A stretch of DNA of 64,000 nt from Solirubrobacteraceae bacterium (lineage in GTDB: Bacteria > Actinomycetota > Thermoleophilia > Solirubrobacterales > Solirubrobacteraceae), in assembly GCA_035504435.1 (NCBI GenBank), contig DATJRV010000083.1, positions 22,242 to 86,241 on the forward strand, in the 5' to 3' direction. The notes under the pieces are model-generated. The model worked only from the letters and a program-made list of their open reading frames with translations. It made no database searches and was not told the DNA's origin. Within the stretch, counting starts at the first letter, position 1. Each line of letters starts with the position of its first letter. A program made the position numbers and the translations under genes. Below are positions 7,195 through 55,068 of the stretch, one piece after another.

Positions 7195-8550
7195 GTGTCA
7201 TCGACGCTCTCATCGGCGCTCTCTTCGCCGCGCCTGCGCCGCATCGTGGCGGCGTACACGATCAACCGGCTGGGCACGTGGATCGCGGAGATCGCCTTGG
7301 CGCTGGCGGTGTACGACCACACGCACAGCGCGCTCGCGGTGTCCGCGACGCTGATCGCGGCGCAGGCGCTGCCGGCGTTCGCGGTCCCGCCGCTGGTGGC
7401 CAAGGTCGAGGCGTCCCGCCGGCGGCGGGAGCTCAGCGGGCTGTACGTGTTCGAGGCCGTGTGCACGCTCGCGCTCGCCGGCATCCTGCTGTGGCAGTTC
7501 TGGCTGCCGGCGGTGCTCCTGCTGGTGGCGCTCGACGGCACCGCGGCGCTGACGGCCAGCGCCCTGCTGCGTACGGAGGCAGCACGGGCGGGACGGGAGG
7601 CGCTGGCCGTAGACGCCCGCGGCGGTGGCGATCGCCAGACATCGAGCGCACGTGACCCCCACGTCGGCGAACGGCAGGCCACGGCGGCGATCAACGTCGC
7701 CTTCTCGGTGACGTTCGTGCTCGGGCCCGTGCTCGGCGGCGTGATCACCGCCGGCGCGGGCGCCCCGGTGGCTTTGCTGGTGGACGCGGTCACGTTCGTG
7801 GCCTGTGGCCTGTTGCTCGTCGATCTGCACCCGGGCGTGGAGGAGGCGCGCGGCGAGTCCGTGCGTGCCCGCCTGGGCGCCGCCTGGGAATACGTCAGAG
7901 GCACGCCCACGCTGCGCGCCATCCTGCTCACGCAGGCGATCGCCTTCCTGTTCTTCGCCGCCGGCGAGCCGATCGAGGTGGCGTATGCGAAGGCCACCCT
8001 GCGGGTGGGCGACAGCGGCTTCGGACTGCTCGTCACCGTGTGGGGCGCGGGGACGGTGGTGGGCGCGGCTGCTTTCGCCCGTGCCCACAAGCAGCCATTG
8101 GGCGCACTGGTGAGCGCGGGCACGCTCGCGGCGGGCCTCGCGTACATCGGCTTCGCCGCCGCCCCTTCCCTGCTACCGGCGTGCGTGGCGGCGCTCGTGG
8201 GCGGCGTCGGCAACGGCATCCAGTGGGCGCCGCTGGTGAGCGCGGTGCAACGGCTCACCCCTGCGCAGCTCCAGGGGCAGGTGATGGGCGGGCTGGAATC
8301 GATCGGGGCGATATGTCCGGCGCTCGGCCTGGCGTTGGGTGGCGCCTTGGTGGCGCTCGGCTCGCCGCGCGAGGCGTTTCTGATCGTCGGCTCGGGCGCG
8401 GCCTTCACGACGGTGGCGTTCGCGAGCGTGATGCTCAGCGACAGCTCCGGCCTGGAATCCGGGCGCGATGACAGGGGACTCCGCGGCGGGCTTGCCGCAA
8501 GCAGGGACGACAGCGATCTGCCCGCGGAGATGCACGCCTCGACACCTTAA
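7195..8550 (+). CDS. MFS transporter (DHA3/H+ antiporter-like)
   Basis: About 12 hydrophobic segments, LRRIVAAYTINRLGTW, QRLTPAQLQGQVMG. Confidence 0.9.
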   Translation: MSSTLSSALSSPRLRRIVAAYTINRLGTWIAEIALALAVYDHTHSALAVSATLIAAQALPAFAVPPLVAKVEASRRRRELSGLYVFEAVCTLALAGILLWQFWLPAVLLLVALDGTAALTASALLRTEAARAGREALAVDARGGGDRQTSSARDPHVGERQATAAINVAFSVTFVLGPVLGGVITAGAGAPVALLVDAVTFVACGLLLVDLHPGVEEARGESVRARLGAAWEYVRGTPTLRAILLTQAIAFLFFAAGEPIEVAYAKATLRVGDSGFGLLVTVWGAGTVVGAAAFARAHKQPLGALVSAGTLAAGLAYIGFAAAPSLLPACVAALVGGVGNGIQWAPLVSAVQRLTPAQLQGQVMGGLESIGAICPALGLALGGALVALGSPREAFLIVGSGAAFTTVAFASVMLSDSSGLESGRDDRGLRGGLAASRDDSDLPAEMHASTP

Positions 8551-8574
8551 GTCCGACATCGCGTCGGTCGATAC
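8547..8574 (+). promoter_or_regulatory. Sigma28/WhiG-type promoter upstream of HD-GYP gene
   Basis: TTAA(8547-8550)-N16-GTCGATAC(8567-8574), 12 nt before ATG 8587. Confidence 0.6.
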
Positions 8575-8586
8575 GTACGGCGGGAC

Positions 8587-10089
8587 ATGCGTCTGCAACT
8601 CCCCGCAAGGCAAGGCAAGGATGCAGCCGCCGATCGCGCGGTCACGGTTGCGGATGTGACGCGAGCGCTGCGCGCGCAGCTCGGGGGAGTGCTGTCTGCT
8701 TCGCTCGCGCAGCAGCTCTTCTGGCTGGCCGAGGCGCTCCTGTTGGGCGGCGCCGTGACGGCGGCGACACTCCTCTCGCGCGCCGAGGAATGGCAGCCGC
8801 TGGTGCTCGTGGGGATGCTGCTCGTGCTCGCGCTGGGCGGTGACTGGCTGAGCATCGAGATCCGGATCGGGCAGCTGAGCGCGTCGATGGTGGCGCTCGT
8901 GCTCGCGATGAGCCTGCTGGGGCCGGCTCCCGCGGTGGCGTTCGGGCTCGCCGCGATCACGCTCACTTCGGCGATCAGGCGCCTGCGCGCAAGTCAGTGG
9001 CTGAACAACTTGGCGATGTTCGCCGTCGTCCCGCTCCTGGGAGGCCTGATGGTGCGCGCGCTGGCGGGCGACGTGCACAGCCCCCACGACCAGCACCTGA
9101 CGCACAGCGTCACGTTCGGGTTGATCGTGATGGGCATGTTCATGGCAATGGTCATATTGAACTTCCTGCTGTTTGCGCTGGACCACCAGTTCGCCGGCGG
9201 CCGCTCGGCCATTCGCCAGACGCGGGAGACCTTCTTTCCGATGCTCCCCGGACAGCTCGCGACGGGCGCGATCGCGACGATCCTCGTGGTCGCCTACACG
9301 AACTCCGGGCTCCCGGTGCTGTTCGCGTCGGTCTTCGCCGTGCTGATCTTCCGCCACCTGACGGTGGCGCTGCTGCGCTCTGAGGACCGCGCCGACCAGC
9401 TCGAAGCGCGCACCATCCACCTGGTCTCGCTGCAGCTCGGCGTGCTGCGAACGCTGGTGAGGGCGCTGAGCATGCGCGACGAGACAACGGGACGCCACGC
9501 GGCAGCGGTCGCCCGCTACGCCCGAGAGCTCGCGAAAGAGGTCGGCGCGGGCGAGGACGAGCAGGACACGGTGCACACCGCCGGCCTGCTGCACGACATC
9601 GGCAAGTTCACGTGGCCCGACCAGGTGCTGCACGCCGAGGTGGTCGGCCAGGAGGACCAGGCGATCGTGCGACGCCACCCTCAAGACGGGGCGGAGCTCG
9701 TGGGGGCGCTCGACGGCTACGGACCTGTGGCGGACACGATTCTCTACCACCACGAGCGGGTTGACGGGAGCGGCTACCCAGCCGGGCTGATCGGCAAGGA
9801 GATCCCACTCGGCTCGCGCATCCTCGCGATCTGCTGCACGTATGACACGATGACCCAGCGGGGCAGCTACCGGCCGCCGATGAGCCCGGCGGAAGCGATG
9901 GGCGAGTTGAGGATCGCGGCTGAACGCGGACAGCTCGATCGTGAGCTGGTCGAGACCTTCATCGGCATGCTCGAGCGCGAGGGACCCACATTCGGACATC
10001 GCGAGAGCACCGACTTCGACACCGAGCTCGCGTTCGGCCGGCGCGTGCGCGAAATGGCCTCGCCGTCGGGCCGGCACGACAAAGCATAA
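8587..10089 (+). CDS. Membrane-anchored HD-GYP c-di-GMP phosphodiesterase
   Basis: Multi-TM N-terminus, then RDETTGRH, HDIGK, HHERVDGSGYPAGL, IPLGSRILAI..YDTMT. Confidence 0.92.
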   Translation: MRLQLPARQGKDAAADRAVTVADVTRALRAQLGGVLSASLAQQLFWLAEALLLGGAVTAATLLSRAEEWQPLVLVGMLLVLALGGDWLSIEIRIGQLSASMVALVLAMSLLGPAPAVAFGLAAITLTSAIRRLRASQWLNNLAMFAVVPLLGGLMVRALAGDVHSPHDQHLTHSVTFGLIVMGMFMAMVILNFLLFALDHQFAGGRSAIRQTRETFFPMLPGQLATGAIATILVVAYTNSGLPVLFASVFAVLIFRHLTVALLRSEDRADQLEARTIHLVSLQLGVLRTLVRALSMRDETTGRHAAAVARYARELAKEVGAGEDEQDTVHTAGLLHDIGKFTWPDQVLHAEVVGQEDQAIVRRHPQDGAELVGALDGYGPVADTILYHHERVDGSGYPAGLIGKEIPLGSRILAICCTYDTMTQRGSYRPPMSPAEAMGELRIAAERGQLDRELVETFIGMLEREGPTFGHRESTDFDTELAFGRRVREMASPSGRHDKA

Positions 10090-10507
10090 GGACGTCCGCA
10101 GCGGATCACATCCCGCCGCGAAACGCCCTTACGTGGCACAACGGTCACTCGTGACCATTGCTACAAACTCCCTTTAGTGCTTGTAAAATTCCGCCATCGG
10201 GATTCTCCTTCTCGTTGACGAAAGGCGGTCACCAGCGACTCCATCCCCAGGACGACCGCTAACCCTTGAGTAGGTTTGGCAAGACTAGCGTACCTGCGAC
10301 TGAAATGTCCAGTTTGCGCACCTTTGTGCAGGGGTACTGTCAATTGAGGCGCTTTCCCTTTGCTGGACAGGGAAAACTGGCTGCCCAGCTGGCGCCGGCA
10401 CCGCCGGGCGTGGGCGCCAAACGTCCGCAAAAGTGCGCGGTGCTCAAGTTTTGGGTGGGCAAGGACGACACATAACGCAGCGATCCCCAACCGACTTGAG
10501 GCCAGTC

Positions 10508-10771
10508 ATGTCACTTCCCGCCCCACCCCCACCCCGCCGCAGCGAGCGCCAGCTGGTGTTCACGAGCTCTCAGGCAGCCCGCTATCTGGGCGTGTCGCTG
10601 GCGACCGTCCGCCGCTGGACGGACGCCGGGCACGTCGCCTGCTACCGCACGCCGGGAGGCCAGCGGCGCTTCTCGCGCGCGCAGCTGGACGACTTCATCG
10701 CGTCGATGCAGCGCACGGGACCTGTGGCGGAACCGCAGGTGACCGACCGGCGCGGCGCGCGTGTGGCGTAG
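10508..10771 (+). CDS. BldC/Xis-like MerR-type winged-HTH protein
   Basis: FTSSQAARYLGVSLATVRRWTDAGHVACYRTPGGQRRFSRAQL matches the BldC/HTH_17 pattern. Confidence 0.88.
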   Translation: MSLPAPPPPRRSERQLVFTSSQAARYLGVSLATVRRWTDAGHVACYRTPGGQRRFSRAQLDDFIASMQRTGPVAEPQVTDRRGARVA

Positions 10772-10772
10772 C

Positions 10773-17869: not shown

Positions 17870-18030
17870 CGCACCCATAGTGTAGCTCGCAGGGGTTACT
17901 CCGGGGCGCCCGATCGACAACGCCGGACATACGAATATTTGGATTCAGCTCTCAACGCCTGGCGGGTGGCTGCCGAACAGGACCGGACGGAATGGTGGCG
18001 AGGGATCGCTGGTCAGGCAACATGGTCCAC

Positions 18031-18459: not shown

Positions 18460-19332
18460 ATGTGCCGCCTCTTCGCGATGAGCGCCGGCAGCGAGCCGGC
18501 GCGCGCCACGTTCTGGCTGCTCGACGCCCCGGACAGCCTGCGCGCGCAGAGCCACCGCGAGCCGGACGGGACGGGCCTCGGGTGGTTTGACGCCGACGGG
18601 GCGCCCGTCGTGCGCAAGCAGGCGCTCGCCGCGTACGCGGACAGGGCCTTCGCGCGCGAGGCCCACGAGATCTCCTCGCGCACCTTCGTCGCCCACATCC
18701 GCTTCGCCTCAACCGGCGCCGTGGAGCTGCGCAACACCCATCCCTTCCAGCAGCACGGGCGCCTGTTCGCCCACAACGGCGTCCTGGAGGACCTGCCCAC
18801 GCTCGACGCGCAGCTCGGCGCCGCGCGCGAGCTGGTGCAAGGCGACACCGACTCCGAGCGGCTGTTCGCGCTGATCACGCGCGAGATCGACGCCCGCGAC
18901 GGCGACGTCGACGCGGGCCTCCAGGCGGCGTGCTCGTGGGTGGCCGCAAACCTGCCGCTGCTGGCGATCAACTTCGTGCTCGCCACAGCTGACGACGTGT
19001 GGGCGCTGCGCTACCCCGCAACCCACGAGCTGCACCTGCTGGAGCGCCCGCCAGGGCAGCCGCTCGTGCACACGAGCAGCCTCGGCAGCAGGACTCGCTC
19101 CGAGCACGGCACCGACCACCCGCTGGTGGTGATCGCCAGCGAGCCGATGGACGACGACCCGCACTGGCGCGCGCTGCGCTCCGGCGAGCTGGTGCGCATC
19201 GCGTCCGACCTGCAGGTGAGCACGCGGCTGATGCTCCCCGACCCCCCAGCGCATCCGCTGACGCTCGCCGACCTCGGCAGCCGCGCGCGGGCATCCCAGG
19301 CGCCGGCGAGCGCCGACGCCGGCGGGCGATAA
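18460..19332 (+). CDS. Class II glutamine amidotransferase (EgtC/YafJ-like)
   Basis: MCRLF N-terminal Cys, PDGTGLGWF, AHIRFAS, NTHPF, FAHNG, GDTDSE. Confidence 0.92.
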   Translation: MCRLFAMSAGSEPARATFWLLDAPDSLRAQSHREPDGTGLGWFDADGAPVVRKQALAAYADRAFAREAHEISSRTFVAHIRFASTGAVELRNTHPFQQHGRLFAHNGVLEDLPTLDAQLGAARELVQGDTDSERLFALITREIDARDGDVDAGLQAACSWVAANLPLLAINFVLATADDVWALRYPATHELHLLERPPGQPLVHTSSLGSRTRSEHGTDHPLVVIASEPMDDDPHWRALRSGELVRIASDLQVSTRLMLPDPPAHPLTLADLGSRARASQAPASADAGGR

Positions 19333-19357
19333 AGCCAGCGCCCGCGCGTGCCGATAC
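19330..19357 (+). promoter_or_regulatory. Sigma28/WhiG-type promoter (probably leaderless)
   Basis: TAAA(19330-33)-N16-GCCGATAC(19350-57), ATG 6 nt later at 19364. Confidence 0.75.
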
Positions 19358-19363
19358 GAACGC

Positions 19364-21169
19364 ATGGGCCGAGTCCGTGCCCACGCTCGCCGTCAGCTGA
19401 TCGCGCTCGCAGCCGTCTTCGCGTTGTGCACCGCTGGCCTGTTCGTCCTCCACGCACAGACCAAGCATCGCTACCGGCTGTCCGCCGCCGCCGCGATCGC
19501 CGACGCCCGCGCGAACGCGAGCGACCGCGCGTTCCTCGCGCGCAACCCCACCAACCACGCGCGCGTGATTCCCCTCGACGGGAGCCTGCAGCGCGTCACG
19601 TTCTTCGCCGGCGCACAGGTGGTGCTCGACGCGGCGGTCGACGAACGCGGCGAAGTCGTGGCGATCGAGCAGCACGACGCCGGCGTGCCCGCCTCCGGCG
19701 CCTCGCTGGCCAACGCCCCCTGGCTGCTGGTTCTGCTGAGCGCGGTGTTCCTGGCGGCCACCACGGTCGTGCCGCTGCGCCGCATCCGCAACCTCGACGC
19801 GCTCGTGCTCGCCAGCTTCACCGTCACCGTGCCGCTCATCAACGCACGCCTGGCCGGCGCGAGCGTGATCTGCGCGTCAGCCGCGCTGCTGTACCTCACG
19901 CTCAGGTGCCTCGCGGTCGGCCTGCGCCCCCACCGCCAGCCCGCCGCCCCGAGCACACCGCTGCTCGCCCACATGTGCAGCAGCTGGCAGCCGCGCCGGC
20001 GTACGCGGCTGCTGCGCCTGCTGCTGGCGGCCACCGTGTTCATCTTCGTCACGATCACGCTCACCTCCGCCGGCTACACCGACGTCGCCGCCGCATCGCT
20101 GCAGGGAGCCACCGAGCTGGTGCATGGCGTGCTGCCCTACGGCCACATCACGCTCGCGCTGCACGGCGACACCTACCCCCTGCTCAACTACGTCCTCTAC
20201 ATCCCCGGCGCCCTGTGGCAGCCGGTGACCACCGCCTTCAGCAGCCTGGAAGGCTCCCTCGCGACCACCACCGCCGCCGCCCTGCTCGCCGGTCTCGGCG
20301 TCCACCGCCTCGCCGCAGCCCCCGGCGCGTCTCACCGACGGCCCGCCAGCGCCACCCAACAGACCCGCTCGGAGCGCGACCGCGCCCTGCGCACCACGCT
20401 CGCCTGGTTCGCCTTCCCCCCCGTGCTGCTGGCCGCCTCCGGAGGCGCCAACGACCTCCTCCTGGCCGCCTGCCTGGCGTGGATGCTCGCTCTGCGCAAG
20501 CACAAGACGTGGTCCACCCTCGCCCTGGCAATGGGCGTGTGGGTCAAGCTCGTCCCGCTGGTGCTCGCAGCGATCTGGCTCCCCTGCCGCCGCAGCGAGC
20601 GGCGCGAGCTGATCCGCGCGTGCGCCGGCGCAGCCGCCCTGTCACTCGCCCTCACCGCCCTGCTCATCGCCCTCGGCGGCCCAGCCGCCATCCCGGCGAT
20701 GATCAAAGCCATGGCCTTCCAGTTCCAGCGCGGCTCGTTCTTCGCCCCCTGGTACACCTTCAACGTCCAGTGGCTGCAGCCCCCAGTACAGGCCGCAGCG
20801 CTAACGATCGTCCTCCTGGTCGCCGTGCGCGCGCAAGCCGACCGCCCCCTGCGCCACGACCTGGTGCGCGTGAGCGCCCTGGCCGCCGCCCTGCTCCTAG
20901 CCCTGCAGCTGAGCGCCAACTACTGGACGTGGTCCTACCTCCCGTGGGTGCTCCCGCCGTTGCTGGTCGCGCTGTTCATGATCGACGGCGATCAGCCGGC
21001 GAGCACGAACGGCGCAGCCCACCACGCCCGAACCAGCACCCCGACAGCGCGCCGCCTCCAGACAGCAGACGCCGCCGCGCCCACGCGGCAGCCGCGACCC
21101 CTGGCTGGTGAGATCGAGCAGCGAGGGCATGTCAGGACACTACGGTCAACGCGCGCGGCAGTCCAGTGA
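19364..21169 (+). CDS. Multi-pass membrane protein, GT-C fold / GT87 (DUF2029)-like glycosyltransferase
   Basis: YTDVAAAS..GVLPYG..DTYPLLNYVLYIP, GGANDLLLAAC, VWVKLVPLVL, NYWTWSYLPWVLP, many TM segments. Confidence 0.7.
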   Translation: MGRVRAHARRQLIALAAVFALCTAGLFVLHAQTKHRYRLSAAAAIADARANASDRAFLARNPTNHARVIPLDGSLQRVTFFAGAQVVLDAAVDERGEVVAIEQHDAGVPASGASLANAPWLLVLLSAVFLAATTVVPLRRIRNLDALVLASFTVTVPLINARLAGASVICASAALLYLTLRCLAVGLRPHRQPAAPSTPLLAHMCSSWQPRRRTRLLRLLLAATVFIFVTITLTSAGYTDVAAASLQGATELVHGVLPYGHITLALHGDTYPLLNYVLYIPGALWQPVTTAFSSLEGSLATTTAAALLAGLGVHRLAAAPGASHRRPASATQQTRSERDRALRTTLAWFAFPPVLLAASGGANDLLLAACLAWMLALRKHKTWSTLALAMGVWVKLVPLVLAAIWLPCRRSERRELIRACAGAAALSLALTALLIALGGPAAIPAMIKAMAFQFQRGSFFAPWYTFNVQWLQPPVQAAALTIVLLVAVRAQADRPLRHDLVRVSALAAALLLALQLSANYWTWSYLPWVLPPLLVALFMIDGDQPASTNGAAHHARTSTPTARRLQTADAAAPTRQPRPLAGEIEQRGHVRTLRSTRAAVQ

Positions 21170-24828: not shown

Positions 24829-25767
24829 CTAGCGCCCGCGAGAACGCCCGTCACGGCCGCCGAACGGCGCGCGGCCGGCGAGCACGAGCACGCCCTGCTT
24901 GGCGGAGTAGCGCAGCCCGGGGATCTCCGTGAGCCCATCGTGCTTGAGCAGCTCGCGACCCGCCTTCGACGCGCCGCGCAGCTCGCTTTCCACCTTCGCG
25001 CTCGCTTCCTTGCTCACCGTGATGCTCACCAGCTCCAGCTCGTACACCAGCGACTGCCCGGAGGAGGCGTATTCGAGCGTCTCGATCTGCCCCGGCGTCA
25101 GTTCGATCGCTTCGCACTGGGAATCGCTCGGCAGGCACTTCGCGGGGCCGTGCAGGATCGCTTCGCTGACGAGCGTGAAGGTCGCGCTCTTGCCGCCCGC
25201 CGTGACGCCGCGGAAGACGATCAGCGCCTGCGTGGAGGACGGCAGCGGCGTGAGCAGCTGCAGGTTCTCGTACGGCGTCAGCTGTTCGACTTCCGGCGTT
25301 TCCGCCGGTGGCAGCAGACCGAACAGGATCGCCGCGTGGTACGCGGTCTTGGTCGCAGGCGGCGCGGGCGGCGCGGACGGCGCGGGCGTGCTGGAGCTCG
25401 GTTCCGAGGCGGTCGAGCTGCTCGAGCCGGACGAGCTCGTGCTGCTCGGGGCGCTGCTCTTCGCGGTCGAGGTCTTTTCCTTCGCTTCCGGCAGCGGCGT
25501 GAACGGATTGCGCGCCTTCCCGCCGCGCTGCTGGGAGACCCCGCCGGTCGTCTCGGCCACCGCCTTGTTCGGGGTGACGCGGCTGACCGACAGTCCGGTA
25601 GTGGCAGGGGCGCCCGCGGACGCGCCCGCCGGCGTGCTCGTGTTCGAGCCGCCGCCCAGCACCACGTAGCCGATCGCCAGCGCAAAGCCGACCACCACGA
25701 CGACCACCAGCGGCAGCAGGCGCCGGTCGAGCAGATCGGCCTTCAGGGAGCTGAAGAAGCTGCTCAT
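24829..25767 (-). CDS. Pilus-operon hypothetical membrane-anchored protein (after PilO)
   Basis: Overlaps the pilO stop. N-terminal TM helix, ARNPF motif, Ser-rich linker, C-terminal domain with a Cys pair (CLPSDSQC). Confidence 0.75.
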   Translation of the reverse strand: MSSFFSSLKADLLDRRLLPLVVVVVVGFALAIGYVVLGGGSNTSTPAGASAGAPATTGLSVSRVTPNKAVAETTGGVSQQRGGKARNPFTPLPEAKEKTSTAKSSAPSSTSSSGSSSSTASEPSSSTPAPSAPPAPPATKTAYHAAILFGLLPPAETPEVEQLTPYENLQLLTPLPSSTQALIVFRGVTAGGKSATFTLVSEAILHGPAKCLPSDSQCEAIELTPGQIETLEYASSGQSLVYELELVSITVSKEASAKVESELRGASKAGRELLKHDGLTEIPGLRYSAKQGVLVLAGRAPFGGRDGRSRGR

Positions 25768-26507
25768 GGCGTGCTCGCTTTCACGACTGCGGGCGTCGTT
25801 GGCGCGCCCGCGGAGCTACTCGACGCCGGCGTCGCACTCGCGGCGCCCGGCGCGCTCGGGCTCGCTCCGGCGGTGAGGCCCTGGCCGGCCGGCAGCACGT
25901 AGGCGTCGGCCGTGATCGTGCCGGTCAGCTCGTTGGAGTTGCTGAAGCCATCGCCGCTGGCGAGCGCGAGCTTCACGCTCTGGACGGTCAGCAGACGACC
26001 GCTGACGTCGATGTTTCCAGGCCCGCTCATGGTCGTGAAGTCCGCGAGCTGGCGCAGCAGGTGTTCGAGTTCGAAGAAGCCGCCGTTGAAGGTGAGCGTG
26101 AAGGGCAGCTGCGTGAACGCACTGGCGGCCGTGCCGGCAGCCGGGCTGCCCGACGCGCTTGTCGTGCTCGCGCCGCCGCTGGTGCCGCTGGAAATGGCCG
26201 CGAAGTTAACCCGCTTGCTGTCGGAGGCCTGAGCGACCTGGTAGATCAGCGACGGGACTTCCTGGGTCGGCGGCACGGCTTTGCCGAGGTTGACGATCGA
26301 TTCGTAGGCGGCCGCATACCGGCTCTGGGCGCCGCGCGCTTCGCCGAGCTGCTTTTCGGCCGTGCTGAGCTGTGCCTGTGCGGTCGCGATCTGCGCGTTC
26401 AGGTTGCTGGCCTTCTTGCGCTCGGGCGAGACGACCTCCAGCCACACGCCGCCAAGCACCACGACGAGCGCGACGAGCATGATCACTGTGCGATCGCGCG
26501 TGGTCAT
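25764..26507 (-). CDS. pilO: Type IV pilus assembly protein PilO-like
   Basis: MTTRDR + TM helix, coiled coil, AVPPTQEVPSLIYQV, LPFTLTFNGGFFEL. Confidence 0.85.
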   Translation of the reverse strand: MTTRDRTVIMLVALVVVLGGVWLEVVSPERKKASNLNAQIATAQAQLSTAEKQLGEARGAQSRYAAAYESIVNLGKAVPPTQEVPSLIYQVAQASDSKRVNFAAISSGTSGGASTTSASGSPAAGTAASAFTQLPFTLTFNGGFFELEHLLRQLADFTTMSGPGNIDVSGRLLTVQSVKLALASGDGFSNSNELTGTITADAYVLPAGQGLTAGASPSAPGAASATPASSSSAGAPTTPAVVKASTP

Positions 26508-27331
26508 CTCGCCTTGACCTCCCCACCAGCGGTGCTCGTCTGGGTGTGGGTGCTCGCCGCCGCGCCACTCTTGTCCGACACCGTCGCAGCCGGCGCGCTC
26601 GCCGCAGCTACCGCCGACGCGCTGGGGAGCGCTTCGAAGGTGACCACGATGCTGTACGCGGGGTCGTTTGAGGGGCAGCCGCCGCTGCTGCCTCCACCAC
26701 CGCTGGTGGCGGACGTGGTGGAGCTCTCCAGTTCGTCTTCCTTCACGCCGTCGATCAGCCGCAGACGCTCGAGCAGCTCCGCCACGGACTTCTGCCCGGT
26801 GGCGCAGCCGGAGATCGTGAACGCCGGCACCGCGCCGGGCGGCGTGCTGGACGCCACGGTCGCACTGCTCGAGCTCGCGGAAGCGCTGGAGCTGGCGGAG
26901 GTAGTCGAGCTGGGAGAGCTGGCGGAGGTCGCGGCGGCTGTCGATGACGAGCCGCCGACGGAGCCGTCGAGCGAGGAGATCGACGTGCCCGGCGGCAGCA
27001 CCCGGCCGAATTCGTGAAACACGTGCGCCCAGTCGAAGCGTGACTCCAGCAGCGTTTCCACCGCCTGCAGACGCTGTTGCCGCAGCGCAGCGAACGCCGT
27101 GTAGGACGTCAGCCGGTTGGCCTGCGCTTCCGCGCGCTGCGCCTGCGCGGCCAGCGACGCAGCCTGCGCCTGCTTGGAGGAGATCGCGTGATCGGCTTTG
27201 CCGTACAGCACGGCCATGATCGCCAGGCCGGCGATGATGGCGAGCAGCGTGTACGCACCGCCCTGCGAGCGCCCGGCGCCGACCGGCGCACCTGTGCGCT
27301 GCTCAGCGGGGATCAGGTTCACGGCTCTCAT
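26504..27331 (-). CDS. pilN: Type IV pilus assembly protein PilN-like
   Basis: MRAVNLIP, TM helix, RFDWAHVFHEFGRVLP, ELLERLRLIDGV. Confidence 0.87.
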   Translation of the reverse strand: MRAVNLIPAEQRTGAPVGAGRSQGGAYTLLAIIAGLAIMAVLYGKADHAISSKQAQAASLAAQAQRAEAQANRLTSYTAFAALRQQRLQAVETLLESRFDWAHVFHEFGRVLPPGTSISSLDGSVGGSSSTAAATSASSPSSTTSASSSASASSSSATVASSTPPGAVPAFTISGCATGQKSVAELLERLRLIDGVKEDELESSTTSATSGGGGSSGGCPSNDPAYSIVVTFEALPSASAVAAASAPAATVSDKSGAAASTHTQTSTAGGEVKAR

Positions 27332-28692: not shown

Positions 28693-28720
28693 ATATCGGC
28701 GCAATGCCTGCGGCGCTTTA
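28693..28720 (-). promoter_or_regulatory. Sigma28/WhiG-type promoter of pilMNO
   Basis: Minus strand TAAA(28720-17)-N16-GCCGATAT(28700-28693). Confidence 0.8.
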
Positions 28721-29477: not shown

Positions 29478-29505
29478 TGATCGGCCGCTACGGGATCGGG
29501 CTTGA
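29478..29505 (-). promoter_or_regulatory. Sigma28/WhiG-type promoter of pilD (probably leaderless)
   Basis: TCAA(29505-02)-N16-GCCGATCA(29485-78), ATG 7 nt later at 29470. Confidence 0.75.
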
Positions 29506-30059: not shown

Positions 30060-30093
30060 TGCTTGATCCTCCTAGGATCCGGTTTGGGCGCCA

Positions 30094-30190: not shown

Positions 30191-30209
30191 GCTGGCTCTG
30201 TCAGCGGCT

Positions 30210-30237
30210 GGATCGACCGGCGCACGGCGAACCTTTA
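30210..30237 (-). promoter_or_regulatory. Sigma28/WhiG-type promoter of pilA
   Basis: TAAA(30237-34)-N16-GTCGATCC(30217-10). Confidence 0.75.
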
Positions 30238-35514: not shown

Positions 35515-36723
35515 CTATTCAATCTGATTGTAAACTTCGAACAGCGGCAGGTACATCGAGATCACGATGAACCCGACGATGCCGCCGATGAGGATGATCA
35601 TGATCGGCTCGAGGATGGAGGTGAGCGCCTTGACCGAAGCCTCCACCTGTTCCTCGTAGAACTCAGCGACCCGGTCGAGCATCTGGTCGAGCGCGCCGGT
35701 CTCCTCGCCGACGCCCACCATGTGCGTGACGATCGAGGGGAAGATCGGCTGCTGGGCGAGCGGTGCGGAGATCGTGCCGCCGCGCTTGACCGAGGCGATC
35801 ACGTCTTCCATCGACTCTTCGACCACGACGTTGCCACCGGTGCGTCCTGTGATCTCCAGGGCCTGCAGCAGCGGCACGCCGGCGGCGGTCAGCGAGGCGA
35901 GCGTGCGCGACCAGCGCGCGACGGCGATCTGCTGCACGATCGTGCCGATCTTCATCGGTATGTGCAGGCGGAAGCGGTCCCACTGCTTGCGCCCCCAGGT
36001 CGTTTTCTTCCACTTGAGGAAGGTCACGACCGCCAGGATCGAGCCGCCGATCATCGCCCACCAGTCGTGGAGCACGATGTGAGACATGTCAACCGACACC
36101 TGTGTCATGGCGGGGAGCTTGCCGCCGAATTCCTTGAACACGCTCTCGAACACCGGCACCAGGAAGGCGACGAGCGCCATCATCACGCCGACCGCGAACA
36201 CGATCACCATGACGGGGTAGATCATCGCGGATTTGATCTGTTTGCGCAGGCCGGCGTCCTTCTGCAGCTGGTCGGCAACCCGCATGAGCGCGTCCTCGAG
36301 CACACCGCCGGTCTCCCCCGCCTGCGCCATCGACACGAACAGCGGGCTGAACACCTTCGGGTGGCGCGCGAGCGAGTCGCTCAGCGAAAGGCCGGCCTCG
36401 ACGTCCTTGCGCACGGCGATGATCGTTTCCTTGAGGTATTTGCTCTCGGTCTGCTCCTCCAGCACGTACAGCGCGCGCAGGATGCTCATGCCCGAGGAGA
36501 TCATCGTGGAGAGCTGGCGCGAGAAGATCGCCAGCTCATTCGGCGTAACGCGCTTGAACAGCGAGATCTCGATGTTCGCCGAGGAGTGCTTGTCGGCGAT
36601 GTCGAGGACGATCAGCCCGCGTTGCTTGAGCTGGTCGGAGACGGCCTGCTTGGAGTCCGCCTCCATTTCGCCGCGGGCCTTGCCCCCGGCGACGTCGAGC
36701 GCCTTGAAGACGTACGTGCTCAT
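35515..36723 (-). CDS. pilC: Type IV pilus platform protein PilC
   Basis: MSTYVFKA, FSRQLSTMISSG, AGETGGVL, AMIYP, VGEETGAL. Confidence 0.96.
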   Translation of the reverse strand: MSTYVFKALDVAGGKARGEMEADSKQAVSDQLKQRGLIVLDIADKHSSANIEISLFKRVTPNELAIFSRQLSTMISSGMSILRALYVLEEQTESKYLKETIIAVRKDVEAGLSLSDSLARHPKVFSPLFVSMAQAGETGGVLEDALMRVADQLQKDAGLRKQIKSAMIYPVMVIVFAVGVMMALVAFLVPVFESVFKEFGGKLPAMTQVSVDMSHIVLHDWWAMIGGSILAVVTFLKWKKTTWGRKQWDRFRLHIPMKIGTIVQQIAVARWSRTLASLTAAGVPLLQALEITGRTGGNVVVEESMEDVIASVKRGGTISAPLAQQPIFPSIVTHMVGVGEETGALDQMLDRVAEFYEEQVEASVKALTSILEPIMIILIGGIVGFIVISMYLPLFEVYNQIE

Positions 36724-37802
36724 GCCGCCGCCAGCGATGTGGCGCCGAGCAGACGCCTGAGCTCCTCCGGCGTGGAGGAGCGCGCTTCGGCGAGTTTCTG
36801 GGAGATCTTGCCCTGGCGCACGAGCGTGGCCAGCGACGCGTCCATCGTCTGCATGCCCACCGAGGAGCCGGTCTGCAGCACGGAGTAGATCTGGTGGGTC
36901 TTGCCCTCGCGGATCAGGTTGCGCACCGCCGGGGTGGGCACCAGGATCTCGGTGGCCACCACGCGCCCGGAGCCGTCGGCGTTGGGCAAAAGCTGCTGGG
37001 TCATGATCCCCTGCAGCGCTACCGACAGCTGCACGCGAACCTGGCCCTGCTGGTGGGAGGGGAACACGTCGATCACGCGGTCGATCGTCTGCGCGGCGTC
37101 CTGGGTGTGCAGCGTGGCGAACACCAGGTGGCCGGTCTCCGCGGCGGTCAGCGCGGTGGAGATCGTCTCCAGGTCGCGCATCTCGCCGACCAGGATCACG
37201 TCGGGGTCCTGACGCAGGGCGGCGCGCAGCGCGTCCCCGAAGCTCTGCGCGTCCGAGCCCAGCTCGCGCTGGTTGACGATGCACTTCTTGTGCCCGTGCA
37301 GGAACTCGATCGGGTCCTCGATCGTCATGATGTGCTCCTCGCGGGTGGAGTTGATCTCGTCGATCATCGCCGCCAGCGAGGTGGACTTGCCCGAGCCGGT
37401 GGGGCCGGTGACGAGCACGAAGCCCCGTGGCTTGCGCGTGAACTCGTGCACCGCGGCCGGCAGCCCCAGCTCGTCGATGGACGTCAAGTTGAACGGGATC
37501 AGGCGGAAGGCAGCGCCGAGCGCGCCGCGCTGGAAGTAGGCGTTGACACGAAAGCGCGCGTGGCCGGGCACCGAGTAGGCGAAGTCGAGCTGCCAGTCGG
37601 TCTCCAGGCGCTGGCGCTGGTCGCCGGTGAGGATCGAGTAGATGATCTCCCGCGTGTCCGTCGGCGAGAGCTTGGGGTAGTCCTCGAGCGGCGTGAGTTT
37701 GCCGCGCACGCGGACCGTCGGGTGCGCGCCGGAGCTGAGGTGAAGGTCGGATGCACGGCGGTGTACGACCTCCATCAGGAGATCCGCGAAATCGATGTCC
37801 AT
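36720..37802 (-). CDS. pilT: Pilus retraction ATPase PilT
   Basis: ASDLHL, GPTGSGKST, TIEDPIE, AALRQDPDVILVGEMRD, AAETGH. Confidence 0.97.
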   Translation of the reverse strand: MDIDFADLLMEVVHRRASDLHLSSGAHPTVRVRGKLTPLEDYPKLSPTDTREIIYSILTGDQRQRLETDWQLDFAYSVPGHARFRVNAYFQRGALGAAFRLIPFNLTSIDELGLPAAVHEFTRKPRGFVLVTGPTGSGKSTSLAAMIDEINSTREEHIMTIEDPIEFLHGHKKCIVNQRELGSDAQSFGDALRAALRQDPDVILVGEMRDLETISTALTAAETGHLVFATLHTQDAAQTIDRVIDVFPSHQQGQVRVQLSVALQGIMTQQLLPNADGSGRVVATEILVPTPAVRNLIREGKTHQIYSVLQTGSSVGMQTMDASLATLVRQGKISQKLAEARSSTPEELRRLLGATSLAAA

Positions 37803-37929
37803 GCGCCCCAGATCGACCGCCGGAGGTGCCCCCGCGCGCCCCGTGGTGAACCGTGGACGAAGGTTCTAGCGCCGGCCGTGCATTGCAACGCGGCTGTCAA
37901 AGGCCAGGCCAGCCGCGCCCGCCAAGCGA

Positions 37930-37987: not shown

Positions 37988-39910
37988 CTAATTGGTGCCG
38001 ATCACCCGCGCGATCTCCGCCATCGAGGTGCGCCCCAGGCGCACCTTGTTCAGCCCGTCGTCGCGCAGGCGCATCATGCCCTGCTTGACCGCAATGTCGC
38101 GGATCGGCTCCGCGGGGCTGCGTTCGAGCGCGAGCGTCTGGATCTCGGGCGACATCTTCATCACCTCATACAGCCCCACCCGCCCGCGGTAGCCGCTGCC
38201 GCCGCAACGCCGGCAGCCCACGGCTTCGTAGGCCTCGAGCTCCATGCGTGCCCGGTAGCCGTTCTCCTGCAGCACCTTCGCGGGGATGATCGTGCGCTTC
38301 TTGCAGTTGGGGCAGAGCATGCGCGCGAGGCGCTGGGCGACCACGCAGTCGAGCGCGGAGGCGACGAGGAACGGCTCCACCCCCATCTCCACCAGGCGCG
38401 TGATGGCGGAAGGCGCGTCGTTGGTGTGCAGCGTGGAGAGCACCAGGTGGCCGGTGAGCGCCGACTCGACGGCAATCTGCGCGGTCTCGCGGTCGCGGAT
38501 CTCTCCCACCATGATGATGTCCGGGTCCGCGCGCACCATCGCGCGCAGCCCCGCCGCGAAGCTCAGCCCGACCTTCGCCGAGACCTGCACCTGGGTGAGC
38601 CCCGCCATTTCGTACTCGACGGGGTCCTCGACGGTGATGATGTTCTTCTCCGGCGTGTTCAGCAGCTGCAACGCGGCGTACAGCGTCGTCGACTTGCCGG
38701 AGCCGGTGGGGCCGGTGACGAGCACCGCGCCGTGGGTCTCTTTGCACGCGCGTTCGAAGCGTTCGCGCTCGGCGTCGGCCATGCCGAGCTTGTCGAGCGC
38801 CACCACCACGTTGTCCTTGTCCAGCACGCGCATCACGACGCCCTCGCCGTGCACGCTCGGCAGCGTCACCACGCGCAGGTCCACGTGGCGGCCGTCCACG
38901 ACCAGCCCCACGCGCCCGTCCTGGGGCAGGCGCTTCTCGGCGATGTTCAGCTCGGCCATGATCTTGATGCGCGAGATCACGCCGGCGGCCATCCGCCGCT
39001 GCACGGTGGTGACGTCCTGCAGCACGCCGTCCACGCGGAAGCGCACCCGCAGTTCCTTGCCGTCTGGCGCCAGGTGGATGTCGGAGGCGCCGCGCTCGAT
39101 CGCCTGTGCGACGACCTGGTTGACGAGCTTGACGACGGGCGCGTCTTCGGAGGTCTCGTGCAGCGCGACGACCTCGCCGCCGTCGTCTTCCTCGGGCTGG
39201 TCGATCGCGGTGGAGGTCTCCCCGACGACGTCTTCGAGCCTGTCCAGGCGCGCGATCAAGCCGGTGATGTCGTCGGGCGGCGCGACCGCCACGCGGATCT
39301 CGTAGCCGGTCATGATCGCGATGTCGTCGACCGCCAGCACGTTCGAGGGGTCGGCCATCGCCACCAGCAGCGTGCGCTTGTCGGCGAACGCCACCGGCAC
39401 CGTCTGGTAGCGCTTGGCGACGGTCGTCGAGACGAGGTTGGCGGCGTTCATGTCCACCGCGAACACGCCCAGGTCGAGGTGGTCGAGGCCGTAGCGCTCG
39501 GCGAGCGCGCGCGCCAGCGCGTCCGGCGTGAGCACGCCCTGCTCGAGCAGCACGCGCTCGGGCGTGGTGCCCGACACGCGCGAGCTGGCGATCGCGTCGT
39601 CCACCTGCCGGCGCGTGGCCAGCTCCATCTCGACGATCACGTCGGTGAGGAAGCGCTGCGAGGAGCCACGCCGCGTGGGCTTGGTGATCCCGTTGTAGTC
39701 CTTCGCCTGCTCGGGCTTGGCGACGGGCGCGGCGGCGTGTGCCTGCTCGGCCGGCTCGACCTCCACGTGCAGGCCGCCGTCGTCGCCCGGGCTGAGCGCG
39801 CGCTCCACGGAGATCACGCCGTCGCCCTGGTCGAGGCCGGGTGCTCCCGGCCCGTCCATGCCGAAGATCGCGTGCAGGTCGGGGTCGGTCTGCTGCGGCA
39901 GATCGCTCAT
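37988..39910 (-). CDS. pilB: Pilus extension ATPase PilB (GspE family)
   Basis: ASDIH, GPTGSGKST, VEDPVEY, RADPDIIMVGEIRD, CxxC..CxxC, GRVGLYE. Confidence 0.97.
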   Translation of the reverse strand: MSDLPQQTDPDLHAIFGMDGPGAPGLDQGDGVISVERALSPGDDGGLHVEVEPAEQAHAAAPVAKPEQAKDYNGITKPTRRGSSQRFLTDVIVEMELATRRQVDDAIASSRVSGTTPERVLLEQGVLTPDALARALAERYGLDHLDLGVFAVDMNAANLVSTTVAKRYQTVPVAFADKRTLLVAMADPSNVLAVDDIAIMTGYEIRVAVAPPDDITGLIARLDRLEDVVGETSTAIDQPEEDDGGEVVALHETSEDAPVVKLVNQVVAQAIERGASDIHLAPDGKELRVRFRVDGVLQDVTTVQRRMAAGVISRIKIMAELNIAEKRLPQDGRVGLVVDGRHVDLRVVTLPSVHGEGVVMRVLDKDNVVVALDKLGMADAERERFERACKETHGAVLVTGPTGSGKSTTLYAALQLLNTPEKNIITVEDPVEYEMAGLTQVQVSAKVGLSFAAGLRAMVRADPDIIMVGEIRDRETAQIAVESALTGHLVLSTLHTNDAPSAITRLVEMGVEPFLVASALDCVVAQRLARMLCPNCKKRTIIPAKVLQENGYRARMELEAYEAVGCRRCGGSGYRGRVGLYEVMKMSPEIQTLALERSPAEPIRDIAVKQGMMRLRDDGLNKVRLGRTSMAEIARVIGTN

Positions 39911-46583: not shown

Positions 46584-47567
46584 CTATGCGGCGCGGGCTT
46601 CGTCGATCGCTTGTTCGATCGAGAATGCGTCCTGCAGCCCGGTGAGCACGATGGTCTTGCCTTGCTTGTTGATGACGAGCAGCGTGGGTGTGGAGTAGAT
46701 CTGCAGCCCGGCGGTGATCGTGCCGTAGGAGGTGACCTGGCTGGCGGTGGCCTTGAAGATGGCGAAGTTCTTCGTCAGTTCCTCACCGCTCTTTTCCAGC
46801 ACGCGCCGGACACCGGGGACCTTGGCGTAGGGCGCTACGAGGTGGTGGATGGCCTGTAGGCGCTGGAGTTCGACGGCGTCGACCGTGTCGTCGGCGCCCT
46901 TGGGGTTCCAGAACAGGATGACGGCGATCTTGCCTCCCTTCAGCGCCTGTTCGACGAGCACCTGGTTTGCGGGTGTGCGGGCGCTGTTGAGATGGGATTT
47001 GACCGGCTGCGCCTTGACGCTCGTGCTGGCGGTCCTTGGCGGGGTGGATGTACGGGCGTGAGCGCTGGCGCTCGTACTCGGGTGCGCGGTGGTGGTGGTG
47101 ATGGTGGTGGCGGAGCCGTGCGCGGCGGCGGTGGTGGTGCTGGGCGCGGCGGTGGAGCTCTGGTGGGTCGGGCTCACCGAGGTGTGCGCGCCGCTGGGGG
47201 CTTGGCTGGGGGCTTCGCTGGTTCCGGCAGCGGCCTTCGCTTGGACTTCGCGTGCTTCGCGCTGCGGGGTCGCCGCCGCTTCGCGCGCCTTGGCGACATC
47301 GCGCGTGAGCCCCTGCAATCCGGGGACTGAGCTGTGGTGGGCTCCGGCGGCGGGGTGCGTCGCGCTGGTGCTCGGCTTGGCGCTGGCGGAGCGGCTGTGG
47401 GCGGCGGACGTGGAGCCGGTCGAGACGGTGCTGGTGACGACGGGCGTGGAGGTGGAGCTTGTGGTGCTGGGGCTGTTGGAATGCGGTTGGAGCGCGAACA
47501 GCCACACGCCTGCGAGCAGCACGACGACGACCAGGGCGAGCTGAAAAGGACGTGGGATCTGCGCCAT
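46584..47567 (-). CDS. Membrane-anchored protein with Ser/Thr-rich stalk and C-terminal thioredoxin-like domain lacking CxxC
   Basis: N-terminal TM helix, long S/T/A linker, IAVILFWNPKGADD..STPTLLVINKQGK. Confidence 0.75.
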   Translation of the reverse strand: MAQIPRPFQLALVVVVLLAGVWLFALQPHSNSPSTTSSTSTPVVTSTVSTGSTSAAHSRSASAKPSTSATHPAAGAHHSSVPGLQGLTRDVAKAREAAATPQREAREVQAKAAAGTSEAPSQAPSGAHTSVSPTHQSSTAAPSTTTAAAHGSATTITTTTAHPSTSASAHARTSTPPRTASTSVKAQPVKSHLNSARTPANQVLVEQALKGGKIAVILFWNPKGADDTVDAVELQRLQAIHHLVAPYAKVPGVRRVLEKSGEELTKNFAIFKATASQVTSYGTITAGLQIYSTPTLLVINKQGKTIVLTGLQDAFSIEQAIDEARAA

Positions 47568-47574: not shown

Positions 47575-47602
47575 GTTTCGGCATCTGCGGTGCAGAAGTT
47601 GA
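47575..47602 (-). promoter_or_regulatory. Sigma28/WhiG-type promoter (probably leaderless)
   Basis: TCAA(47602-47599)-N16-GCCGAAAC(47582-75), ATG 7 nt later at 47567. Confidence 0.7.
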
Positions 47603-52596: not shown

Positions 52597-52627
52597 TCGA
52601 ACGATCGTATCCCCACGATCGGGGGGC

Positions 52628-54197: not shown

Positions 54198-54745
54198 GCG
54201 GCGTGATCGTCGAGGTCGTGCTCATCGATCGCGGCGGGCGAGGAGCGTTCGACGCGACGCGCGAGACGCCGCCACCTCGCGGCGACCTCGCGCAAGCCAG
54301 ACCAAAGGTCATCTCGATCGACCAGCACGCGCCCGCGCTCGATCACGTCAACCATGAGGACAGGAGAGCTCCGCGCGTCGGAGAGTCGAACCAGCTGCAC
54401 TTCGCGACCGATGCGCCGGGAGAGCCGCTCCGCCAAGTCGGCAAGGCGGCCCACGCCCGGGTCGTGCAAGACGACGAGGACATCGACATCCGAGCGCTGG
54501 TGATCGCTCCCGGTGGCTGTCGAGCCGAACAACACCGCGAGCCTGACGTTCGGCTCCGTACGCAACGCCGCCCGGAGCGCCCGCAACAATTTCCAATGGC
54601 CACGAAGGTACGCCTCCTCCCAGAACGTGACCCGAAACCGGCGCGGGCTGACGCGCTCTCCCCGCACCAGGCCTTCGGAGGCCGCGCGACGCAGCGTCCG
54701 CTCCGGGATCGAAAGTTCGGCCGCCACTCGTCGCAGAGAGTCCAT
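54194..54745 (-). CDS. Minimal nucleotidyltransferase (MNT) with N-terminal HTH
   Basis: LAVLFGSTATG..SDVDVLV, N-terminal LRRVAAELSIPERTLRRAASEG. Confidence 0.88.
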   Translation of the reverse strand: MDSLRRVAAELSIPERTLRRAASEGLVRGERVSPRRFRVTFWEEAYLRGHWKLLRALRAALRTEPNVRLAVLFGSTATGSDHQRSDVDVLVVLHDPGVGRLADLAERLSRRIGREVQLVRLSDARSSPVLMVDVIERGRVLVDRDDLWSGLREVAARWRRLARRVERSSPAAIDEHDLDDHAA

Positions 54746-54763
54746 GGATCCATCGACATTACA

Positions 54764-54824
54764 CCGTATGGCCGATAAATCCAGCCCGTATGGCCGATAA
54801 ATTGTGCCCGTGTGGCCGATACAT
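54764..54824. repeat. Three 17-bp direct repeats at 22-bp period upstream of the MNT
   Basis: CCGTATGGCCGATAAAT at 54764 and 54786, CCGTGTGGCCGATACAT at 54808. Confidence 0.9.
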
Positions 54825-55068
54825 CGCGGTGGGCGAGCCTTGACGCTGGTCATCGAAAAGACCCTCGACCCGACATCCTGGCTGAGCTGCGAGATAGCCG
54901 GTAGCGCGACTGGCACTCGCGCGTCGCACACGTACATATCTGCTCGCGCTCGACTGGCCCGCGATCGACGCTGCCGAGAAAGCCCTGGCGCTGCTTGAGC
55001 GCGAACCGCTCGCAACGGCGCCCACCCCCAACTCACGGTGTTCTGCTCAAATACCGATAGATGGCCTT

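Follow-up and report, generated by a model that had tools for sequence, protein, structure and literature searches.

A predicted WhiG-type promoter family connecting type IV pilus genes with cyclic di-GMP and envelope genes in Solirubrobacteraceae

Genes for a type IV pilus and several genes of other function, dispersed over one 64-kb stretch of Solirubrobacteraceae DNA (contig DATJRV010000083.1; the whole stretch is referred to below as the window), carry a similar bipartite element upstream. Do these copies form one promoter family and, if so, which sigma factor would read it? The initial annotation of this DNA had proposed a family of the sigma-28/WhiG type. Fixed geometry, orientation, intergenic position, and conservation in orthologues all bear this out, and they point to a regulon that would extend well beyond the pilus. 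The window is 71% G+C and 87% coding. Its PilT is 85 to 87% identical to PilT of metagenome-assembled Solirubrobacteraceae genomes, and one wetland metagenome run contains the DNA of the window almost complete; the source is therefore an uncultured member of the Solirubrobacterales (Thermoleophilia, Actinomycetota).

The bipartite element and its distribution

The motif THAA-N16-GYCGAWM was searched in the window, with the expectation taken from 100 dinucleotide shuffles. Seven exact matches were found against 0.09 expected, and none of the 100 shuffles reached seven. All of them, at 8547, 17952, and 19330 on the plus strand and at 28720, 29505, 30237, and 47602 on the minus strand, were intergenic and oriented toward the next gene. 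The six sites listed in the initial annotation were recovered with their coordinates and their shared spacer of 16 nucleotides (nt), 17952 being the addition; a weaker TCAC copy at 55033-55060 and a copy of the -10 box alone ahead of pilT, which it had also named, were present and are kept in relatives (see below). For spacers from 10 to 22 nt, the same motif gave 0, 0, 0, 3, 0, 0, 7, 0, 0, 0, 0, 1, and 0 matches, respectively, and is thus almost confined to N16.

Since THAA-N16-GYCGAWM was fitted to its own sites, the independently published WhiG2 consensus, T[AC]AA-N16-GCCGA, served as a control motif. A comparison of coding with intergenic matches, as suggested in the initial annotation, gave a clear result in this largely coding window: all five exact matches of the control motif were intergenic, each with a start codon on the same strand within the next 200 nt. 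At 12 other spacers, the same two boxes yielded 10 matches when pooled, of which 2 were promoter-positioned. Allowing one mismatch in the published rule added four further sites, and eight of the resulting nine were intergenic. It should be noted that relaxed versions of the motif also match coding DNA with a three-base (codon-phase) periodicity, the rule with one mismatch yielding 10 matches at a spacer of 13 nt and 7 at one of 19 nt; therefore, position and orientation weigh more than raw counts.

Footprint tests were carried out across relatives, whose fetched loci (labeled L001, L002, etc.) amount to about 2 Mb altogether. When a matrix was built from the relatives' sites only, sites of the window took ranks 1 to 6 and 8 of 128,000 positions, all of them intergenic and co-oriented. 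The matrix is not fully independent, its sites having been chosen with the scoring rule already in use; what is independent is that they lie at a fixed position with respect to the genes. At orthologous positions in relatives of 50 to 87% identity, the element was kept while the spacer sequence drifted. The chance level was estimated from random 330-nt stretches of the HD-GYP loci, in which at least 10 of the 11 specified positions were matched with P = 4.6% and all 11 with P = 0.27%. Conservation in relatives is the strongest evidence for this predicted promoter family.

Nine transcription units carry the element (Table 1): pilA, pilD, pilM-N-O, pilT-pilC (-10 box only), and the genes for an HD-GYP protein, an EAL-HDOD protein, a GT87-like glycosyltransferase, a 327-aa membrane-anchored protein, and a BldC-like regulator. 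As the initial annotation had stated, it links pil genes to non-pil genes. The -10 had CGA at its center at every site of the window. In five of the nine units (pilD, pilT, EAL-HDOD, GT87-like, and 327-aa) the start codon lies 6 to 8 nt after the -10, from which their mRNAs are predicted to be leaderless; longer gaps separate the -10 from the HD-GYP, pilM, and pilA start codons.

Genes carrying the element and its conservation at each

The genes pilB, pilT, pilC, pilA, pilD, pilM, pilN, and pilO are embedded in a conserved block, alaS-ruvX-mltG-aroE ... aroC-aroKB-aroQ-efp-nusB. A complete pilus set was recognized, comprising an N-methylated-type pilin, a prepilin peptidase, the PilB and PilT ATPases, the PilC platform, and PilM/N/O. 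The pilA site was kept in L001, L002, and L006, with spacers that differed, and contigs of further relatives showed TAAA-N16-GCCGATC, TAAA-N16-GTCGATC, or other -10 variants at this gene. Three pilin paralogues occur in L005 with one such site each; in other Actinomycetota, pilin paralogues carry the site, as does a GT-C gene beside a pilin gene. Ahead of pilD, TCAAG-N15-GCCGATCA is retained 8 nt from the start in L001 and L002, and L005 has a similar site. The gap between pilD and pilM holds comparable sites in L005, L006, L009, L014, and L025. At pilT, G[CT]CGAT was found 8 to 12 nt ahead of the ATG in 12 of 13 relatives, with weak or variable -35 boxes.

A conserved 5' leader separates the pilA site from its gene. 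On the minus strand at 30060-30204, blocks of this leader (CTGACA.AGCCAG, AAAGCCGGCGGCCC, GGGCTGGCGCCC, and CCTAGGAGGAT) are shared with L001 and L002; its consensus fold has an energy of -43 kcal/mol, and an Rfam search of the leader returned no match and no riboswitch. Two metatranscriptomes held RNA of pilA relatives. In a peat contig from a relative with about 91% identity, high depth extended over pilA and the leader to 30163 and then ran 12 nt more into Illumina adapter, and a soil contig over pilA ended near 30182; coverage upstream was zero. The 5' ends of these RNAs fall within the leader, at about 30173-30182, and place the 5' end of pilA 29 to 38 nt after the -10 or closer to it. 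Contig ends are not maps of start sites, as they lack single-base resolution and can reflect processing, and this RNA derives from relatives only; the ends are compatible with the position of the promoter and do not confirm it. Across 20 kb, metatranscriptome contigs were informative about transcription starts at pilA alone.

Two of the non-pil members encode enzymes of the type that degrades cyclic di-GMP (c-di-GMP). In the translation of the HD-GYP gene, HDIGK and HHERVDGSGYP were found, i.e., the HD and GYP motifs are intact, and its match to the NCBIfam c-di-GMP phosphodiesterase model lay below the cutoff. Its promoter element, in the form T[ACT][AT]AG-N15-G[CT]CG[AT][AT]A[AC], was kept in 67 of 80 orthologous loci with 51 to 80% protein identity, and in none at other spacers. 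The second enzyme, EAL-HDOD, gave a weak and partial match to EAL, and this domain may be degenerate. TCA[CA]-N16-[TG]CCGA[TA]AA, followed by GTG after 6 to 7 nt, was kept in all three orthologous metagenome contigs, and because of this the weaker copy in the window is considered genuine. With the relatives' matrix, no such promoter was found in the window at either of the GGDEF genes, 2565-3191 and 60290-62308. Within the window, the promoter-bearing c-di-GMP genes are thus of the degradative type only. The GGDEF protein encoded within 2565-4334 adjoins a HisKA_3 kinase, and that at 60290-62308 is a GGDEF-EAL protein.

Two further members appear to act at the envelope. TCAAG-N15-G[TC]CGAT was kept in 17 of 18 loci orthologous to the GT87-like gene, 6 to 9 nt ahead of the ATG where N termini align. 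The 327-aa protein carries WNPKG in place of CxxC in its thioredoxin-fold domain and is in this sense redox-dead. The predicted structure has a confidence (predicted local distance difference test) of 71, and the top 50 fold matches in the PDB all belonged to the thioredoxin family, led by the membrane-anchored Etrx and DsbF. Among 17 homologues, two matched Pfam Thioredoxin_2. The site was kept in all four relatives compared, with N16 in L001, L002, and L265 and N15 in L264; TCAACT...TGCCGAAG is retained just ahead of a conserved start, MAQ(I/L)(P/S)RPF, in proteins that are only about 35% identical. The GT87-like and the Ser/Thr-rich 327-aa proteins are putative co-expressed envelope factors, and it would be a guess to link them to the pilus itself.

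The site ahead of the BldC-like gene was absent from the initial list and was found by the published one-mismatch rule. The protein scored 42.6 bits with NCBIfam HTH_BldC, below the cutoff of 77, and is therefore described as BldC-like rather than filed as BldC. By tblastn the gene was located in 78 loci. TCA[AT][GC]-N15-[GAC][ACT]CGANNC recurs at N16 in at least 46 of the 73 orthologous loci, compared with 0 to 1 at other spacers. The -10 of the orthologues is mostly GACGAAAC, with GCCGAA in 10 loci and GCCGAAAC in some. About 24 nt upstream of the -35, at 10410-10425 and in L082-L161, lies a conserved box, CAAACGTCCACAAA. A similar box, CAAACGTACAC, occurs upstream of whiG in Thermoleophilaceae together with CAAA-N16-GTCGAAAC, a possible sign of autoregulation or of a different kind of promoter.

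The non-pil members had been taken in the initial annotation for uncharacterized pilus or surface factors. This description does not cover all of them: two are c-di-GMP phosphodiesterase-type signaling proteins, which have counterparts in Rubrobacter, one is a GT-C glycosyltransferase, and one is the membrane-anchored 327-aa protein. The BldC-like regulator had been missed.

Table 1. Positions of the elements and of the genes discussed, in window coordinates. Gaps are the nt between the 8-mer -10 and the start codon.
Feature	Position	Strand	Sequence or evidence	Gap
HD-GYP promoter	8547..8574	+	-35 TTAA, 16-nt spacer, -10 GTCGATAC; rank 2 in relatives' matrix	12 nt (ATG)
HD-GYP c-di-GMP phosphodiesterase-type protein, multi-pass membrane N-terminal half	8587..10089	+	Pfam HD_5, 8e-38	
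BldC-like gene site	10444..10471	+	TCAA-N16-GACGACAC; 36 nt ahead of gene	
BldC-like small MerR/excisionase-type helix-turn-helix (HTH) protein	10508..10772	+	Pfam HTH_17, 5e-14; 75-85% identical across family	
Seventh exact match (candidate)	17952..17979	+	TCAA-N16-GCCGAACA; rank 6 in relatives' matrix	
GT87-like promoter	19330..19357	+	TAAA-N16-GCCGATAC; mRNA predicted leaderless	6 nt (ATG)
GT87-like GT-C membrane glycosyltransferase	19364..21169	+	Pfam GT87, 4.9e-7, 30.2 bits (cutoff 25)	
312-aa gene	24829..25767	-		
pilO	25764..26507	-	Pfam PilO/T2SSM	
pilN	26504..27331	-	Pfam PilN	
pilM	27328..28647	-	Pfam PilM_2	
Promoter of pilM and downstream pilN, pilO, and 24829-25767	28693..28720	-	TAAA-N16-GCCGATAT; -35 overlaps pilD stop codon	~45 nt
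pilD, prepilin peptidase	28718..29470	-	Translation; orthologue 73% identical in L001 and L002	
pilD promoter	29478..29505	-	TCAA-N16-GCCGATCA	7 nt (ATG)
pilA, major type IV pilin	29604..30059	-	N_methyl motif; NCBIfam prepilin N-terminal domain	
pilA promoter	30210..30237	-	TAAA-N16-GTCGATCC; then conserved 5' leader	~150 nt
pilC	35515..36723	-	Translation and orthologues	
pilT	36720..37802	-	Translation and orthologues	
pilT -10-only element	37810..37817	-	GTCGATCT	7 nt (ATG)
pilB	37988..39910	-	Translation and orthologues	
327-aa membrane-anchored protein	46584..47567	-	N-terminal transmembrane helix, ~190-aa Ser/Thr/Ala/Pro-rich linker, C-terminal thioredoxin fold	
327-aa gene promoter	47575..47602	-	TCAA-N16-GCCGAAAC; rank 1 in relatives' matrix	7 nt (ATG)
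EAL-HDOD promoter	55033..55060	+	TCAC-N16-ACCGATAG	8 nt (GTG)
EAL-HDOD protein	55069..56352	+	Pfam HDOD, 1e-13; EAL, 4e-10, second half of profile only	

Several other features of the window touch on these genes. Within the 3' end of aroE, 239 nt ahead of pilB, TCAA-N16-TTCGATCA occurs on the minus strand at 40149-40176, where relatives have TCAAG..GCCGAT; it could be an internal promoter of pilB or, equally well, conserved codons for K-x-L-P-L-x-A-D (the window copy reads TTCGAT). A second GT-C glycosyltransferase (PMT_2 and YkcB_C; 30591-32585) lies divergently to pilA, as it also does in L001 and L002, and lacks the motif. In L029, at 5741, a GT-C gene adjoining a pilin gene carries TCAAG-N15-GCCGATAG. 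Conserved gene order is interrupted between rnd and pilC by a RES/Xre toxin-antitoxin pair (34529-35421) and elsewhere by the toxin-antitoxin region at 17166-18330. In the latter, the exact match at 17952 lies between a VapBC-like pair (17166-17857) and a truncated PIN fragment (18037-18330). Another copy, TCAA-N16-GTCGATTG at 57023-57049 of the minus strand, is intergenic without a convincing downstream gene on that strand; it is either a match by chance or a promoter of the orphan or antisense kind.

Of the three N13 matches, two (at 54776 and 54798) do not belong to this promoter class, as they lie inside an unrelated 22-bp tandem repeat. That repeat, at 54764-54825, comprises three copies of CCGTATGGCCGATAAATnnnnn, each with a perfect GCCGATAA/C box and with TAAA 13 nt upstream rather than 16. 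A divergent gene at 54194-54746, which encodes an HTH-nucleotidyltransferase (MNT-like), has the repeat directly upstream. Probably the repeat is an array of operators rather than a WhiG promoter, and it could titrate the sigma factor. The repeat falls within a region, 51177-55000, which begins with a tRNA-Met gene (51177-51253) and continues as a stretch of lower GC (66%) with a nuclease-like gene, an XRE-type regulator, and a HEPN/MNT-like pair; the region, which lies immediately ahead of the EAL-HDOD gene, resembles an island that inserted at the tRNA. At the other end of the window, a NarL/LuxR-type response regulator (6350-7051, minus strand) is 89 to 95% identical in 80 genomes whose neighboring genes are about 60% identical. 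Upstream of it (window 6350-7190), many relatives have repeated boxes, GTCGTCCCAAAGGTGCA beside TGCCGATCGTG. A match with a 17-nt spacer in the window, at 7049-7076, belongs to these conserved boxes, which are an element of another kind.

WhiG as the candidate reader and competing explanations

The elements are probably promoters read by the sigma-28-family factor WhiG of this organism. We favor this reader because the motif and the WhiG2 consensus in the literature are the same and because the -10 and -35 reading regions of WhiG in this family are nearly identical to those of Streptomyces WhiG. A protein search with Streptomyces venezuelae WhiG returned Streptomyces sequences only, and a Thermoleophilia WhiG (P0132) was obtained by a search of representatives together with cluster names. 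P0132 passed the NCBIfam WhiG equivalog model with 370.8 bits against a threshold of 343. At least 579 relatives occur in genome contigs; the best 80, from Thermoleophilaceae, Solirubrobacteraceae, Baekduia, and Capillimicrobium, showed 79 to 99% identity. Regions 2.4/3.0 and 4.2 of Solirubrobacteraceae WhiG are nearly identical to those of S. venezuelae WhiG, and the same promoter specificity is therefore expected. In three loci, whiG adjoins an xerC-like gene and not flagellar genes. Contigs with whiG-like genes are plentiful in the source metagenome and are not assignable to the genome of the window. Near the pil clusters of L010-L012, the sigma genes proved to be SigB/F-like or primary-like rather than WhiG.

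We hypothesized the following circuit. WhiG would read one bipartite element consisting of a -35 T(A/C/T)AA(G) and a -10 G(C/T)CGA(T/A)(A/C) at a fixed distance of 16 nt. A homodimeric single-motif RsiG loaded with c-di-GMP would hold WhiG, as in Rubrobacter, and falling c-di-GMP would free WhiG and switch piliation on. The degradative enzymes driven by WhiG would in turn lower c-di-GMP, giving a positive feedback toward low c-di-GMP; as only c-di-GMP genes of the degradative type carry the promoter in the window, the circuit would reinforce itself. Single-motif RsiG proteins have been shown in Conexibacter, Patulibacter, and Thermoleophilum (PMC8325347), and gating by c-di-GMP is proposed here from the literature on those proteins.

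A number of observations weigh against WhiG as the common reader or against individual members. Among the 67 HD-GYP orthologue promoters, 49 have G(C/T)CGTTAA, with CGT where the WhiG/FliA literature has an invariant CGA, and their geometry, AAG-N17-CGT, resembles that of promoters for extracytoplasmic function (ECF) sigma factors. Between the two boxes of the HD-GYP promoter lies a dyad, (A)CGAC-N5-GTCG(G), conserved at 8551-8566 and in L082-L161 (window copy, CCGACatcgcGTCGG), which suggests that a second factor may bind over this single promoter. The predicted -10 of the BldC-like gene is off-consensus, L001 and L002, the closest relatives, show a degenerate site ahead of pilM, and pilT lacks a -35 match. 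The pilA RNA contigs of relatives end 29 to 38 nt downstream of the -10, not 6 to 8 nt. No sigma gene was found in the 64-kb window by tblastn with Escherichia coli FliA and S. venezuelae WhiG. The RsiG motif E(X)3S(X)2R(X)3Q(X)3D was absent, except for out-of-frame junk, from the window and the approximately 2 Mb of fetched loci, including 4 kb on either side of 80 whiG genes. The sites at 17952, at 57049, and within aroE are unverified candidates.

The departures from GCCGATAA in the majority -10 of HD-GYP, G(C/T)CGTTAA, and in that of BldC-like, GACGAAAC, could mean that there is one real regulon whose reader is another alternative sigma factor (ECF or other group 3/4), its likeness to WhiG being coincidental. 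A distance of 17 nt separates AAG or AAC from CGT or CGA here, and many ECF promoters have this spacing; in addition, two sites of the window begin with TCAAC, and no sigma gene is tied to the genome of the window. We nevertheless regard such a reader as unlikely. CGATAA, CGAAAA, and CGTTAA interchange at one orthologous position, which suggests one tolerant reader, and the sites at the pil, GT87-like, and EAL-HDOD genes agree with the WhiG consensus, with TAAA and GCCGATA among their boxes. Moreover, WhiG is near-universal and highly conserved in Thermoleophilia, and the combination of pili with c-di-GMP enzymes in the regulon mirrors the set of WhiG promoters verified at transcription start sites (TSSs) in Rubrobacter.

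It is quite unlikely that the set is mixed, with WhiG promoters at the pil genes and separately controlled look-alikes at some of the dispersed members (the 17952 candidate, BldC-like, and HD-GYP). Both boxes and the 16-nt spacing are kept across many genomes at each of the HD-GYP, GT87-like, EAL-HDOD, 327-aa, and BldC-like genes, and an unrelated element is therefore disfavored. What speaks for a mixture is that the relaxed motif matches coding DNA with codon-phase periodicity, that 17952 has no orthologous locus for comparison, and that two of the promoters have conserved features of their own, a dyad at HD-GYP and an upstream box, CAAACGTCCACAAA, at BldC-like. In favor of an operator bound by a regulatory protein, the element is bipartite and conserved, and the HD-GYP copy contains an inverted repeat. 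However, the two halves of the element differ and are asymmetric, it is strictly oriented toward the gene, and its fixed distance of 6 to 8 nt from the start codon at five genes leaves no room for another promoter; the RNA of pilA relatives also begins downstream of the element, not upstream. That the element is an operator and not a promoter is thus highly improbable.

With WhiG as the preferred reader, the parts can be joined into a wider picture, which we put forward tentatively and consider rather doubtful as a whole. WhiG would co-express the pilus genes, an envelope glycosylation module (GT87-like), a mucin-like, redox-dead anchor (the 327-aa protein), a BldC-like regulator, and only those enzymes that degrade c-di-GMP. 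The outcome would be a self-locking state of low c-di-GMP and an ancestral cascade from WhiG to a BldC-type regulator that predates Streptomyces development. The anchor protein could be a substrate of the GT87-like transferase or a pilus-associated adhesin.

Relation to known WhiG and FliA systems

The literature statements of the initial annotation were correct (PMC8325347, PMC12871210), and its estimate of novelty was too high. A WhiG regulon for pili and c-di-GMP was already published for Rubrobacter in 2021, and such regulons were predicted across Actinomycetota in a 2026 preprint. What is new here is the extension of the switch described in Rubrobacter to Solirubrobacteraceae, together with candidate targets that are well conserved. 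There is good support for reading the sites as promoters of one regulon; the c-di-GMP gating and the surface-factor roles of non-pil members are inferred. A circuit known from one genus is thereby extended to a very abundant soil lineage (Solirubrobacterales, Thermoleophilia), in support of the view that control of pili and c-di-GMP is the ancestral job of WhiG in Actinomycetota. The family-wide targets named here, i.e., the GT-C glycosyltransferase, the Ser/Thr-rich thioredoxin-fold membrane protein, the BldC-like regulator, and the HD-GYP enzyme, are testable in culturable Conexibacter, Solirubrobacter, and Baekduia. Furthermore, the "invariant" CGA of the -10 varies at one orthologous promoter, that of HD-GYP.

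A literature search found no report of a WhiG pilus regulon for Thermoleophilia. The predicted WhiG2 regulons of Actinomycetota (Denis et al. 2026 preprint, PMC12871210) share the consensus of the window, given there as T(A/C)AA-N16-GCCGATAA, and c-di-GMP enzymes are described as the most widespread predicted targets. For pilus targets, the main text of the preprint lists Cellulomonadaceae, Cryptosporangiaceae, Sanguibacteraceae, Rubrobacteraceae, and Jonesiaceae; the same main text is silent on Thermoleophilia, Solirubrobacter, Conexibacter, glycosyltransferases, and HD-GYP.

The closest parallel is the (RsiG)2-(c-di-GMP)2-WhiG regulon of Rubrobacter radiotolerans (Schumacher et al. 2021, PMC8325347), with which the window shares the promoter consensus. 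In Rubrobacter, 12 WhiG promoters were TSS-verified, of which 3 lie in the pil cluster and 5 at diguanylate cyclase/phosphodiesterase genes (PMC8325347). As in the window, several promoters within the pilus cluster drive separate units, and others serve genes of c-di-GMP turnover, one of these promoters being close to the pil cluster. R. radiotolerans, too, is a unicellular, early-branching actinobacterium, although of a different class, Rubrobacteria there and Thermoleophilia (Solirubrobacteraceae) here. Whereas the Rubrobacter starts were TSS-verified, the promoters of the window are known from sequence, and RsiG and WhiG were not seen in the same genome. Unlike in Rubrobacter, the promoter occurs in the window only on c-di-GMP genes of the degradative type, and there are extra conserved members, namely, the GT87-like glycosyltransferase, the Ser/Thr-rich thioredoxin-fold membrane protein, and the BldC-like regulator.

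The WhiG-RsiG sporulation switch of Streptomyces employs an orthologous sigma factor with near-identical DNA-reading regions, encoded beside an xerC-like gene. Its targets are whiH and whiI, and its RsiG is a monomer with two motifs, whereas the targets here are pili and c-di-GMP enzymes. Flagellar class III promoters read by FliA/SigD in E. coli and Bacillus subtilis are of the TAAA...GCCGATAA type and, as proposed for the window, have a sigma-28-family reader. They differ from the present case, which involves no flagellar genes, has a spacer of 16 nt instead of 15, and is expected to have RsiG with c-di-GMP rather than FlgM as its anti-sigma factor. In Actinoplanes, the zoospore pili are FliA dependent; there, too, the sigma-28 family drives type IV pilus genes.

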